Origin: a virus
Length of the DNA: 43,260 bases
Strand: one strand, 5' to 3'
Virus record (IMG/VR): IMGVR_UViG_3300045988_009985
In this document: positions 35,705 through 41,317 of the stretch, piece by piece
How the letters are laid out: the number at the start of each line of letters is the position of its first letter
How positions within the stretch are numbered: the first letter of the stretch is position 1
Notes under the pieces: model-generated
Databases searched by the model: none
Seen by the model: the letters and a program-made list of their open reading frames with translations, nothing else
What the model was told of the DNA's origin: nothing
Translations under genes and position numbers: made by a program

Positions 35705-37741
35705 TCATTCCTCCTCCGGAAAATGTTCCTTTGTCACGGCGATGGGAAACGGCTCGATCTCGCTTGCCCACCGCGCCGTACCTTTCCCGTGTATGCGCTC
35801 CCAGATCAGCGGAAAGCCCGCGATGCCATCAAATAAGCTTCCCAGCGTCGCGTCCTCCGGCAGATACCGCGCCATGCGCCGCAGCATCCAGTCCCAGAAG
35901 GGCAGGGCGATGGAGTTGCCCAGCGCCTTGTACTTCGGGCTGTCCGCGTCCTTGTGTTTCTTTCCCTTCTCATCCGTCCAGTCGCCAATGTCCACCCATC
36001 CGTCCGGGTATCCCTGCAAGCGTGTACATTCCAACGGCGTCAATCGGCGCACCACCATGTTCTGCACCGGGTATGTCTCCGCGTCCTCCCGGTACGCGCA
36101 GTTCGCCTTTTCCCGTATCGTGTGGCTCACGTCCGCACAGACGACTGCGTGGCTCACTTTGCTTTCTCCTGCTCGTAATGCGTTCTTCGTTTCGCTTTCT
36201 GCCCAGTTTTCTTCCATCGCGCTTTTGGGCTGGTATAAAACCGCCCGCGCCGCGTCCGGGGTTACGCCGCACACAAGGTCTGTGCTGTCCTTAAAGTCAC
36301 GTTGCTTGCAACTGCTTGCAACCTCGGCGGCGCGGTAATCTCCAAACCCGTTCATCTGGTATGTAAGCGGCACTTGGTTTCCGCCCGTGCCCATCCTCGC
36401 CTGCAACGCCGGGACCTGCTCCCCGCACTCGCGGATGACGTCACAGGCGTGTGTCATGTCCAGCGCCACCACCGCGGGCTTATTCCCGCCGCACTCGGCG
36501 TTCAGTGTAGGAGACAGTTCCTCTTGATAGCCGATGCTCCGCGCCTGTTCACTATTGCCCAGCTTAAAACCGGCACACAATACACTGTCCCGCGCCATGC
36601 CGCCGTTTTCGTTGGCATTCAAGCTGTGCCATGCGCCATCCTGATCGTACACCCTTGCGCTCTGTGCGTCCCAAGGATTCAAACACGCAACCTCCGCGCA
36701 CACCGCAGGGCGGTCTATTGTGTTCAGGGTGTAGCTCTCGTCCGTTTTCCAGCCTTTCCCGTTGCATCCGGCGGTATCGGCGAGGTCAATGCCGTTTCCT
36801 TGCAGACAGAAAATCGTCTGATCGTTTCCTCCGCCATCGTGGTTATGGCTCTCTCCGCCGCCCTGCCATCTGGTGGCTTTTCCGTTGATGGGGATAGCCG
36901 TTGCAAATACGCCATGCGAATGTGCAGCAGAAATGGTGTTCGCCGGGTCGCCCGGTTCTCCTACGCCAAATCCTGTTCCGCGCCCTAACGCTTTGCAGCG
37001 CGTAGCCACCATCAGGTTAATAGGCGTGGGCGTAAAAATCGTCTGGTCATTGCCCGTACCAAGCGTTCCGCTTTTCTCCGTCTGCACTAAAGCGCCTTTT
37101 CCTCCTCCGTCACAGCCCCCCCTGATGCGGACTGCATAAGAAGCACCTCTTTCAGCCGCTCCGGCAGGTCCTTCCCCCGCCGCTCCGCTCTCCGCAGGAT
37201 GCCCAGACACGCTTTCGCGGTCAAATTGTATTTGGGCAGCGGATTCACCTCCAAAATCTGCGACAACCGAGATTCTTCGGCGACGCTGTGGGGTCCCCAG
37301 ACGGATAACATTTCCTGTACGGCTGTCTCGGATGGTTTTTCCCCAGTCCTTAGCGTCGTGAGTTCGCCAAGCGATAGACCACCCATCACCGTCAATGGCT
37401 CCTGCTTTTGTCCATTTCTGCTTGTCCGGCAGTCCAGATAGAGAAAATCCTGGTTCTGCGATACGCGCAATTTCTTCCAGCACGGCTGCGAAGTCTTTTC
37501 CTCTGTTGCTGCTGAATGCTCCGACAACGTTCTCCCAAACGAGAAACCGAGGTCGGACCATGTCACCTGTCCGTCCATTCCGTTTGTCCTCCGCTCTCAT
37601 TTCTTTTACGATGCGCACCTGCTCCATAAACAAGCCGCTTCGCGCTCCCGCCAGTCCGGCGCGTTTTCCGGCGATGGATAAATCCTGTCTAACAAGGTGA
37701 ACCACCTGTAATACACCAAATGGGTTCAATCTCTGCCCCAT
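35705..37741 (-). CDS. DNA (cytosine-5) methyltransferase homologue with permuted motif order and no in-frame catalytic Cys. It may be a pseudogene or a recoded gene.
   Basis: In order, the ORF carries QDLSIAGKRAGLAGARSGLF (second half of motif IV), ENV, PQRRRR, a long variable region (FCLQGNGIDLADTAGCNGKGW), RRLTPLECTRLQGYPDGW, GNS, and then, at the C-terminus, LGSLFDGIAGF...WASEIEPFPI (motifs I-II). Confidence 0.8.
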   Translation of the reverse strand: MGQRLNPFGVLQVVHLVRQDLSIAGKRAGLAGARSGLFMEQVRIVKEMRAEDKRNGRTGDMVRPRFLVWENVVGAFSSNRGKDFAAVLEEIARIAEPGFSLSGLPDKQKWTKAGAIDGDGWSIAWRTHDAKDWGKTIRDSRTGNVIRLGTPQRRRRISVVADFGGESAAQIQFDRESVSGHPAESGAAGEGPAGAAERGASYAVRIRGGCDGGGKGALVQTEKSGTLGTGNDQTIFTPTPINLMVATRCKALGRGTGFGVGEPGDPANTISAAHSHGVFATAIPINGKATRWQGGGESHNHDGGGNDQTIFCLQGNGIDLADTAGCNGKGWKTDESYTLNTIDRPAVCAEVACLNPWDAQSARVYDQDGAWHSLNANENGGMARDSVLCAGFKLGNSEQARSIGYQEELSPTLNAECGGNKPAVVALDMTHACDVIRECGEQVPALQARMGTGGNQVPLTYQMNGFGDYRAAEVASSCKQRDFKDSTDLVCGVTPDAARAVLYQPKSAMEENWAESETKNALRAGESKVSHAVVCADVSHTIREKANCAYREDAETYPVQNMVVRRLTPLECTRLQGYPDGWVDIGDWTDEKGKKHKDADSPKYKALGNSIALPFWDWMLRRMARYLPEDATLGSLFDGIAGFPLIWERIHGKGTARWASEIEPFPIAVTKEHFPEEE
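37087..37578 (-). CDS. Embedded alternative-frame ORF (163 aa) inside the MTase gene
   Basis: GGAGG lies 9 nt upstream of the ATG. The C-terminal part reads LSQILEVNPLPKYNLTAKACLGILRRAERRGKDLP. GC3 is higher than in the MTase frame over the overlap. The ORF ends at a G7 tract. Confidence 0.4.
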   Translation of the reverse strand: MDGQVTWSDLGFSFGRTLSEHSAATEEKTSQPCWKKLRVSQNQDFLYLDCRTSRNGQKQEPLTVMGGLSLGELTTLRTGEKPSETAVQEMLSVWGPHSVAEESRLSQILEVNPLPKYNLTAKACLGILRRAERRGKDLPERLKEVLLMQSASGGAVTEEEKAL

Positions 37742-37772
37742 TTATTTTCGTAATATCGCCTAAATGTTTCAC
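37689..37772 (-). CDS. 27-codon ORF encoding the missing MTase segment up to the catalytic Pro-Cys
   Basis: AGGAGGTG precedes the GTG at 37772. The ORF reads VKHLGDITKINGAEIEPIWCITGGSPC and then TAG. The downstream ORF frame resumes 4 nt later with QDLS. Confidence 0.6.
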   Translation of the reverse strand: MKHLGDITKINGAEIEPIWCITGGSPC

Positions 37773-40987: not shown

Positions 40988-41317
40988 TTAGTCCATAAGG
41001 GGGGGATCCTTCTTCATCGCCCCGATGACGTACACGCCGCGCTCCTTGTCCAGCGCCACCTGCACGGTGTAGTCCGTCAGCGCCTGTGTCACCAGCTCCG
41101 CAGGGATCTCCAGATGGTAGCCCCACAGTGTGTCGCAGTCCTCACGCTTCTCGCCGAACTGTACGGCACAGGCGGCGTAGTGCGCATCCATGCCGCGCCT
41201 GAACGCCTCGTTCACGCTCTCCGCGTCCTCGATGTGCTGCCTCTGGCGCTGTACGATGTTTTCCAGGTGCCGATTCTGCCGCCGCAGACCCTTGATCTCA
41301 TCCTGCATCGTTCCCAT
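40988..41317 (-). CDS. Coiled-coil hypothetical protein
   Basis: It is an ORF within the operon with no named motif. Confidence 0.45.
   Translation of the reverse strand: MGTMQDEIKGLRRQNRHLENIVQRQRQHIEDAESVNEAFRRGMDAHYAACAVQFGEKREDCDTLWGYHLEIPAELVTQALTDYTVQVALDKERGVYVIGAMKKDPPLMD

Follow-up and report, generated by a model that had tools for sequence, protein, structure and literature searches.

A conserved second reading frame inside phage C5-cytosine methyltransferase genes and a polymorphic G tract at its junction with the downstream half

In phasevarions, simple-sequence repeats lie in mod or hsd genes, and classical phase variation turns the enzyme ON or OFF. The alpha gene of the C5-cytosine methyltransferase (MTase) M.EcoHK31I also encodes, in a different frame, a beta chain that is needed for activity (Lee, Kam & Shaw 1995; PMC2836561); the N-terminal part of beta serves association and not catalysis, and beta carries motif IX, which alpha lacks (PMC2836561). 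In mycobacteriophage Corndog (genes 6/7) and comparable split methylase genes of mycobacteriophages, an open reading frame (ORF) in the downstream frame has its best ribosome-binding site (RBS) and start, together with coding potential, inside the upstream ORF, which encodes the N-terminal MTase part, and Cresawn et al. (2015) left open whether two products, a frameshift, a hop or an intron accounts for it (PMC4351075). C5-MTases can also be divided, as natural M.AquI alpha/beta and engineered halves, including those of cp62M.MpeI, reassemble when split between motif VIII and the target-recognition domain (TRD) (PMC5944983). Here we describe a C5-MTase gene on the minus strand of IMG/VR virus record IMGVR_UViG_3300045988_009985, a stretch of 43,260 nucleotides (nt) which is called the window below. 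Inside the MTase frame (frame A) lies an ORF of 163 codons, B, in the +1 frame relative to A, the second position of each B codon falling on the third position of an A codon, and near the end of B a G7 tract joins the region of overlap to the downstream half of the gene. The second reading frame is under selection, has start signals and a conserved domain and is widespread, the tract is polymorphic, and genes fusing either one or the other frame to the downstream half exist.

The locus shares with M.EcoHK31I a second ORF placed wholly inside a C5-MTase gene in another frame, but the small chain carries motif IX there and frame A does so here. The candidate tie between the two, B's domain being a copy of motif IX (L[ST]xxxCxx[IL]), was ruled out (hhalign probability 0.1%), and a homopolymer frame-swap is not described for M.EcoHK31I, a comparison made by its published description. 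The arrangement in Corndog is probably the same phenomenon, judging from the paper's description, and B with the same domain is present in phage Lucky2013; the Corndog account, however, takes up one paragraph and contains no comparative tests, conserved domain, N-terminal motif or cross-phylum spread, and neither a full-length frame A with a free small B nor a homopolymer switch. A search of the literature returned no paper analysing the embedded second frame. As for split enzymes, the fragments [62-279] and [280-61] of cp62M.MpeI have the module content of those of our genes in which frame A ends early and B continues (A-short plus B-long, see below); here, in contrast to split C5-MTases, the second half begins ~100 codons upstream, inside the coding sequence of the first half, and brings an extra conserved domain, and these genes occur, too, in a version with one chain and a free small protein. 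Finally, as in phase-variable MTases, a homopolymer in the MTase ORF differs in length among close relatives and alters the reading frame, but the +1 state here enters a second maintained ORF, so that all modules are encoded in either state. The locus belongs to a phage or prophage and not to a pathogen restriction-modification system, and the length differences were seen between genomes.

An embedded reading frame with start signals and a conserved domain

The 678-codon minus-strand ORF at 35705..37741 matches PF00145 (C5 cytosine methylase, E 6.9e-18) and also falls in PHROG DNA methyltransferase families. A preliminary description, made from the sequence of the window alone, had reported inside it the ORF of 163 codons at 37087-37578 with a GGAGG 9 nt before the ATG at 37578. 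The ORF and its translation were reproduced on the minus strand and the GGAGG was found at 37592-37588. Hand counts of GC at third codon positions (GC3) given there were likewise recovered on recomputation, being 27/40 for the embedded and 16/39 for the MTase frame at 37201-37320 and 14/20 and 7/19, respectively, at 37441-37500; for the MTase frame at 36721-36810 we obtained 21/29, where about 22/30 had been noted. Across the whole overlap, GC3 of the MTase frame was 0.45, compared to 0.69 in the remainder of the gene, and that of the embedded frame was 0.66. Since the long ORFs of the window have GC1/2/3 values of 0.65/0.46/0.66, the third positions of A in the overlap show the GC level that second codon positions usually have here. 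The unusual Arg codons of motif VIII can be attributed to constraint by the second frame.

Start signals of B are maintained among relatives, where the ORF is preceded either by GGAGG-N9-ATG, as in the window, or by AAGGAG-N8/9-ATG a few codons upstream. The hexamer resembling a Shine-Dalgarno (SD) sequence shifts together with the ATG in use, and an SD-like core precedes the first B-frame ATG in 72/93 loci; B thus has translation start signals of its own, in which the SD co-varies with the start. On near-identical public contigs, gene callers call B and not frame A. At loci L006-L010 and L005, the embedded ORF is called along with a downstream fragment and the N-terminal part of the MTase is missed, which fits the better coding statistics of frame B in the overlap and is a source of fragmented annotations.

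Openness of the second frame was assessed in 88 related loci with a recognisable motif VI, comprising 4 GenBank virome scaffolds, 6 contigs reached through B homologues, 77 of 80 IMG/VR loci and the window. Frame B was free of stops in 86 of the 88, from 50 nt before motif VI to at least 385 nt after it, and in these 86 its open length ranged from 137 to 614 codons, whereas the third frame was open for only 13-91. When the synonymous codons of frame A were reshuffled in 69 loci and the stops appearing in frame B were counted, 1.2-5.8 stops per locus were expected (mean 2.7); the +1 frame stayed open in 1.4% of the shuffles for the window and in 0-27% per locus across the 69. Elsewhere in the same genes, the +1 frame contained 1068 stops per 26404 codons. 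The embedded ORF is therefore longer than expected from the reference frame and remains open in divergent homologues.

Selection was examined in a codon alignment of 23 genes of the A-long type, in which frame A runs through the downstream half, less than 85% identical to one another. The fraction of identical codons among identical residues was 0.50-0.60 along the gene, 0.60-0.70 over the first two thirds of B and 0.87-0.93 over A codons ~140-185, which overlap B's C-terminal domain and where amino acid (aa) identity in frame A was only 0.54-0.60. Pairwise diversity at A third positions had a baseline of ~0.48 and decreased to 0.40 in mid-B and to 0.21 in the C-terminal domain, in which the most variable codon phase was the third position of B and the third-position GC of A dropped to 0.43, the level of second positions. 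In this alignment, aa identity over the C-terminal segment was 0.78 for B vs 0.67 for A. Among ten phages compared across phyla over the same 43 codons, identity was 0.60 in B and 0.32 in both A and the third frame, with no stops in frame A and 23 in the third frame. After the residues VVA, the window and phage P7 are unrelated in frame A (DFGG vs SART) and read QILE and QVLE in B, their B-synonymous differences being CAG/CAA, TTG/CTC and GAG/GAA. In P1-like phages, variable sites per codon phase were 22/15/13 in the domain, peaking at the third position of B, vs 3/3/12 upstream of it, peaking at the third position of A, and the insertions and deletions inside the C-terminal domain comprised whole codons. 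Synonymous variation in the MTase frame, which the preliminary description had proposed to test on aligned homologous loci, collapses over the C-terminal part of B, the excess constraint being strong at B residues ~105-146 and weak over the N-terminal two thirds.

Three parts can be distinguished in B (Table 1). Close to the start there is a motif of the form G-Q-[VM]-[ST]-[LWI]-F-D-L, of which the window holds a degenerate copy. In 110 representative clusters the motif lies 3-11 residues after the Met, with Q in 76%, a hydrophobic residue at position 4 in 87%, F in 50% and D in 72%. Over the bases of the motif, frame A encodes a variable loop between motifs IV and V/VI (RTGELV / RTALDV / TPAHLC), and B retains the pattern Q-hydrophobic-S/T-hydrophobic-F. 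Where the start of B has another position relative to A, the ORF opens with MTFDQLDLF (Lucky2013) or MQLTMF (Bcep22). The consensus for binding to the beta sliding clamp is QL[S/D]LF or QxxLF (PMC12309361), a pentapeptide in a terminal disordered segment with Q first, L (hydrophobic) fourth and F fifth; the family consensus GQ[VM]S[LI]FDL fits it, but the window copy QVTWS fails at positions 4-5, and we put forward clamp binding by this motif purely as a hypothesis. In the middle part, AlphaFold2 gave predicted local distance difference test (pLDDT) values mostly of ~40-50 (block means 39-54), with a helix modelled at residues 84-108.

The C-terminal domain of ~45 residues has the consensus LSQILE..KY.L..KAC.GILRRAERRGK.LP..L..VL, and its helices were modelled in the window's B with a pLDDT of 72-87, the remainder being low. 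Modelling of P0317, a protein in which B is fused to the downstream half, was unusable (76-row alignment, pLDDT 34.6) except for helices at 103-150. The frame-A linker encoded by the DNA of the domain is, across phyla, no better conserved than a non-coding frame. The preliminary description had also noted a likeness of the LSQILE..KY.L..KA stretch to the segment that usually follows motif VIII in C5-MTases; hhalign did align the domain to Dcm 307-338, the segment located 41 residues after motif VIII in E. coli Dcm, although weakly (E 0.053). On a more distant branch (L010 4290-4400 and L005), 28 extra codons separate motif VIII from the LSQILE domain, and in frame B the preceding segment LTLTDTPQGTSSLNVSEE resembles the start of the domain, QILEENPDPKYNLTPKAC. 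This resemblance suggests a tandem duplication, of which one copy would serve frame A (DFNGHTAGDILFER) and the other frame B.

Homologues of B are abundant, against the possibility raised beforehand that the 163-aa product would have none anywhere. We found 964 in a set of 5.8 billion proteins, and an exhaustive phmmer search matched 2131 representative clusters at 50% identity, most of which align from their own residues 5-20 and consequently share the start region. By tblastn against GenBank phages, B was detected in 119 records, or 151 with the P7 copy as query, from phages of Escherichia (P1/P7), Vibrio, Pseudomonas, Burkholderia, Caulobacter, Brevundimonas, Mycobacterium and Streptococcus. 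Seven annotated genes were opened (P7 dam/dmt, Javan422, CP-T1, Lucky2013, DMCA, Bcep22 and D14E), and in all seven the match lay in the +1 frame of the annotated C5-methyltransferase coding sequence, within an open stretch of 130-221 codons ending in the same terminal domain (..LSQVLEQTSIPQRYFLSSKACAGILRRAEARGRKLPDILQTSL in P7). A detectable domain was also present in 534 plasmids, 449 of them from Escherichia and 38 from Salmonella, and those sampled had it beneath a gene annotated as a Dam-family MTase, the situation of P1 dmt. When plasmids were searched for a canonical copy of the domain read in frame, the matches listed were for the most part dmt-type genes (Dam-family MTases) on Escherichia and Salmonella plasmids, and the idea of such a copy was dropped.

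In the dmt/dam gene of P1-family phages (P7, L099; P1, L111; and L112-L115), the +1-frame ORF has 163-172 codons and the same C-terminal domain; it is not annotated in the P1/P7 records examined. The bifunctional Dam/C5 enzyme Dmt of P1/P7 resembles the window enzyme in that its N-terminal C5 part holds a +1-frame ORF of 163-165 codons with the domain ..LSQVLEQTSIPQRYFLSSKACAGILRRAEARGRKLP.. over motif VIII, in the same register; unlike the window enzyme, it has an unpermuted order of motifs, carries a fused Dam domain and lacks both a G tract and a TAGA (see below). Lucky2013 (L102 1065-2265) carries the system in three pieces, namely an annotated 'DNA methylase' of 279 aa with motifs I-VIII only, an embedded B ORF of 157 aa and a separate 149-aa ORF in B's frame with TRD-IX-X, the latter two being annotated as hypothetical or lacking annotation.

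The G tract and the two gene architectures

The G7 homopolymer (C7 on the plus strand) and the end of the embedded ORF 30 nt after it were reproduced. It is the only C run of at least 7 in the window, where the only other G/C homopolymer of that length is a plus-strand G7 at 40999-41005. In the A-long architecture (the window, L004, L010 and most relatives), frame A continues through TRD and motifs IX, X, I and II, and B is short, stopping ~10-25 codons after its domain. In the opposite architecture (L001 and nine other loci), frame A ends after ~200-230 codons and B-long, of 483-614 codons, covers the downstream half. The census of loci gave 64 A-fused vs 10 B-fused.

Tract length decides between the two. 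In the lineage of the window, G7 leads into frame A (27 loci), G8 into frame B (L032, L044, L058 and L070) and G6 into the third frame (L003 and L089); in a sister lineage, whose spacer is 70 nt longer, G6 leads into A (6 loci), G7 into B (L001, L031, L057 and L081) and G8 into the third frame (L079). The effect foreseen for one additional G, fusion of B to the downstream half (..SGGGCDGGGKGALVQ) and truncation of the MTase frame (..IRGGL-stop), is realised in L032, L044 and L058, and the fused reading ..SGGGCDGGGKGALVQ also occurs in proteins P0140 and P0343. An invariant homopolymer would have spoken against a switch, but within the ORF the length of the tract varies from G5 to G8 among close relatives. 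The flanks of the tract variants are 96-100% identical across 0.7-1.2 kb, which indicates that the changes are recent and recurrent on several backgrounds.

The proteins in which B is fused to the downstream half are not artefacts. Identical copies were found on many contigs (P0361 on 82, P0300 on 17 and P0343 on 6) of varied origin, NCBI genomes and a 606-kb contig among them, and more distant B-long lineages (P0145, P0248 and P0258) do not derive from the tract of the window. The two proposals made from the window sequence, a genuine overprinted gene or a slippage- or phase-variable switch between two MTase architectures, both have comparative support: the former through openness, the co-varying SD and start, synonymous constraint and a phylogenetic breadth reaching from Firmicutes gut phages to mycobacteriophages, and the latter, at the DNA level and between genomes, through the tract length that decides which frame is fused and through B-fused proteins on many independent contigs.

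Motif order and a TAGA at the catalytic cysteine

Besides the profile match, the C5-MTase assignment of frame A relies on motifs IV (GGSPC), VI (VWENVVG), VIII (PQRRRR), IX (RRLTPLECTRLQGYP), X (YKALGNS) and I (LFDGIAGF), with the caveat that PC and Q of motif IV are parted in the window by four nucleotides, TAGA. The motifs of the window gene (35705-37772, minus strand, GTG start at 37772) follow the order III-IV-VI-VIII-TRD-IX-X-I-II, and the permuted order III-IV-...-X-I-II in one ORF is shared by the window, L004, L010 and about 85 related loci. Judged by its motifs, the window enzyme is a natural circular permutant of class B topology, with the N-terminus between motifs II and III. Class B permutants were made artificially by Slaska-Kiss et al., were the most active and were reported absent among natural C5-MTases (PMC5944983).

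The reading frame of the window gene is interrupted at the catalytic Cys, whose codon is followed in frame by TAG, all that comes after being read in the +1 frame. The interruption is conserved: about 35 of the 88 loci, some of them only 41-50% identical to one another, share an unchanged 24-nt core, GGTGGTTCACCTTGTTAGACAGGA, and alleles without TAGA show synonymous-site variation at that place. The upstream ORF of 27 codons retains RBS and start in related lineages, and its changes are synonymous or conservative, which points to purifying selection. TAGA is thus conserved and not decayed, and looks like a maintained recoding site or a two-piece arrangement; it could bring about +1 recoding (GGSPC-R-QDLS), translation could restart at the frame-A GTG that lies within GGTGGT, or the protein could be catalytically dead. 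Compared with prfB, the TAGA site has a stop and, 6 nt before the Cys codon, a GGUGGU, but re-pairing of UGU on GUU is impossible; at the G tract, +1 re-pairing is possible and the A-long state requires no stop or SD context. Searches with Rfam at the interrupted loci and near the shift sites found no group II intron or other RNA, and local RNA folds near the shift sites were not better than those of shuffled sequences.

Three accounts of the interruption were rejected. Reassignment of TAG, or its reading by a phage tRNA, is at odds with the lack of tRNA genes in the window and with TAG also ending a neighbouring gene. For TAGA as the footprint of a tyrosine-recombinase element no link was found, since the element was seen only in alleles without TAGA, flanked by CAGGAT. 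That the window MTase is chiefly a pseudogene does not agree with the intact 27-codon ORF and 660-codon body, with purifying selection and with the lineages carrying TAGA being only 41-50% identical. The element itself, a mobile sequence of ~3.9 kb (L092 5260-9170) with tyrosine recombinases, inverted-repeat ends and flanking CAGGAT direct repeats, sits exactly in the P-C-Q-D codons of C5-MTase genes, permuted and non-permuted, and is also present in L093, L095, L096, L097, L068/L091, L079 and L062.

The window belongs to a phage or prophage, and neighbours of the gene include a PAPS-reductase-like gene, an IstB-like gene and a ParB-methylase. Its closest GenBank DNA matches are human-gut virome scaffolds, more distant ones being phages of Faecalibacterium and Ruminococcus, and it also matches genomes among Clostridia/Oscillospiraceae metagenome-assembled genomes.

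Table 1 Features of the methyltransferase locus in the window and of the P7 counterpart (positions in the window unless a locus is given)
Feature	Position	Strand	Remarks
Embedded ORF B, 163 aa, ATG start	37087..37578	minus	+1 frame of A; ORF list, homologues, openness
GGAGG Shine-Dalgarno of B	37588..37592	minus	9 nt upstream of the B ATG (37578-37576)
B residues 3-10, GQVTWSDL	37549..37572	minus	Degenerate copy of the N-terminal motif G-Q-[VM]-[ST]-[LWI]-F-D-L
Middle of B	37267..37548	minus	Over MTase motifs VI and VIII; stop-free, weak protein constraint
B residues 105-146, LSQILEVNPLPKYNLTAKACLGILRRAERRGKDLPERLKEVL	37141..37266	minus	Helical C-terminal domain, most strongly selected part
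Frame-A reading of the domain DNA, DFGGESAAQIQFDRESVSGHPAESGAAGEGPAGAAERGASYAV	37130..37258	minus	Low-complexity Gly/Ala/Glu/Ser-rich linker, open
G7 homopolymer (C7 on plus strand)	37116-37122	minus	Junction choosing the frame continued into the TRD/IX/X/I/II half
Frame-A methyltransferase body	35705..37687	minus	QDLSIAGKR (after the catalytic Cys) to stop; motif coordinates, PF00145, PHROG
Motif VI, VWENVVG	37520-37540	minus	Located in sequence
Motif VIII, PQRRRRISVVA	37259-37291	minus	Located in sequence
Motif IX	36005-36049	minus	Located in sequence
Motif X	35912-35932	minus	Located in sequence
Motif I, LFDGIAGF	35813-35836	minus	Located in sequence, C-terminal
Motif II, WASEIE	35753-35770	minus	Located in sequence, C-terminal
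TAGA, 4-nt insertion between motif IV Cys and Gln codons (PC/Q)	37688..37691	minus	Stop and +1 frame change
Upstream 27-codon ORF, third frame, VKHLGDITKINGAEIEPIWCITGGSPC	37689..37772	minus	GTG start 37772; TAG directly after the Cys codon
AGGAGG before the 27-codon ORF	37786-37781	minus	Located in sequence
P7 embedded +1-frame ORF	L099 2483-2977		Unannotated, in dmt/dam

A second polypeptide for the methyltransferase?

The reading that we favour, to which we give a probability of roughly 0.6, is that B is a genuine gene in the +1 frame of the C5-MTase gene, translated from its own SD and ATG, that the tract swaps the frame fused to the downstream half, and that B is a subunit of the enzyme. 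B would consist of a linear motif at the N-terminus, ~90 stop-free and probably disordered residues over motifs VI-VIII and the helical C-terminal domain of ~45 residues, this domain being the selected reading of its DNA and the MTase frame serving there as a linker. As a second MTase polypeptide, B may supply in trans the element between motif VIII and TRD, which the frame-A polypeptide would no longer contain. With G7, frame A is fused to the TRD-IX-X-I-II half and B ends 10 codons later; with G8, B is fused to that half and frame A stops at once (..IRGGL*). Either state would provide the same three modules, with a different pair covalently joined, so that the tract would exchange which polypeptide bears the recognition half and would not switch the enzyme off. 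That B acts with the methyltransferase is suggested by its natural fusions to TRD-IX-X(-I-II), which are common. Translation of B, its role as a subunit and an adaptive value of the switch are what we infer from these comparisons.

Several observations weigh against this reading. Translation of B is a prediction from sequence comparison, and the stop and frameshift at the catalytic Cys make the activity of the window MTase uncertain. Scans of Pfam, PHROG and NCBIfam gave no family for B, sequence searches of the PDB with two profiles of the C-terminal domain gave chance-level matches only, and Foldseek with the AlphaFold2 model of the window's B found nothing in the PDB at E<=0.001; as B has no family match, its biochemical role is deduced from fusions and analogy only. 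The similarity of the domain to Dcm is weak, the N-terminal motif of the window is degenerate, and motif IX is present in frame A itself, which sets B apart from the beta chain of M.EcoHK31I in this respect. The tract, moreover, is absent from 36 of the 88 loci, where ORF B is kept, which indicates that the embedded gene is the general feature and the tract a lineage-specific addition; there are states fusing neither frame (L003, L089 and L079), and the tract variants could include assembly errors.

These last points bear on a narrower role for the tract, in which G7 would be the sole functional state and G8 and G6 decaying knock-outs or homopolymer errors, with no switch. The states fusing neither frame agree with it, L079 also having the mobile element inside the gene, as do the dominance of the A-fused state (64 vs 10) and the presence of runs interrupted by a substitution yet A-fused in L033, L036 and L076. 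We nevertheless find it rather doubtful, because B-fused loci outnumber those fusing neither frame (8 vs 3 among loci with a tract and 10 vs 6 among all loci), identical B-fused proteins recur on up to 82 contigs from several sources, the distant B-fused lineages P0145, P0248 and P0258 are independent of this tract, and a class B permutant split at this very position complements experimentally (PMC5944983). A different explanation would dispense with the start of B: a +1 ribosomal frameshift or polymerase slippage would join A and B, the functional products would be fusion proteins of the A-B or A-B-TRD kind, and upstream B would not be translated from its own start. In each frame one half is strongly conserved and the other only kept open, as expected of a frame-crossing product; in B-fused genotypes a single +1 shift yields a complete single-chain enzyme; from the sequence, tRNA-Gly slipping by +1 along the G run should re-pair perfectly; the conserved TAGA in the same gene seems to need a +1 event; and frameshifting or hopping was left open by Cresawn et al. 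for Corndog genes 6/7 (PMC4351075). Recoding does not, however, require B to be stop-free for ~100 codons upstream of any plausible crossing, as it is in 86 of the 88 loci and across phyla, nor that it keep an SD, an ATG and a conserved motif just after the start. There is no conserved slippery sequence near motif VIII and no Rfam element or significant RNA fold, and the G run is missing from the 36 loci mentioned above. Moreover, LSQILE overlaps the codons of the motif VIII strand, so both cannot share one chain, and in A-long genotypes a shift into B would give a truncated protein. On this balance, joining of the two frames by recoding seems unlikely to us.

Least probable by far is that B is untranslated and owes its conservation to an RNA structure, to a DNA site or to the conservation of the MTase frame. 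It is true that translation of B is predicted from sequence, that mid-B is conserved only because frame A is, and that B belongs to no known protein family. But the C-terminal domain is conserved in B (0.60) and not in A (0.32), with B-synonymous changes, variation peaks at the third codon position of B, stop avoidance is specific to this frame and region, the indels of the domain are whole codons, and no RNA family or stable fold was detected; we consider this explanation highly improbable. A bolder version of the subunit reading, which we hold only tentatively and think rather unlikely as a whole, would make B an adaptor whose QxSLF motif binds the host beta clamp and whose helical domain docks on the MTase; in the lineage of the window, the gene would use three frames, with +1 recoding at the TAGA of the catalytic Cys, the embedded gene and a swap at a hypermutable G tract. 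If true, the enzyme would be tethered to replication forks, a bacterial-virus counterpart of Dnmt1-PCNA, and an ancient dual-coding module would be shared by a large clade from gut Firmicutes phages to P1 and mycobacteriophages.

Under the favoured reading of B as a gene of its own, B appears from its distribution to be an ancient, widespread second gene in phage C5-MTases, unannotated in P1. It would represent a well-supported case of long and ancient dual coding in bacterial viruses, in which the second frame outconserves the annotated one over 45 codons, and it explains the split or mis-called annotations of such methyltransferase genes. The gene is also a natural instance of the class B circular permutation reported missing from nature. 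The question raised by Corndog, two products, a frameshift or a hop, becomes testable, and the P1-family copy offers a tractable model for experiments. If B is a required subunit or tether, the orphan phage MTases that protect DNA from restriction would be two-component enzymes, and their heterologous expression and use in methylome work would have to include B. The exchange at the G tract would be a form of phase variation that rearranges an enzyme instead of switching it off.

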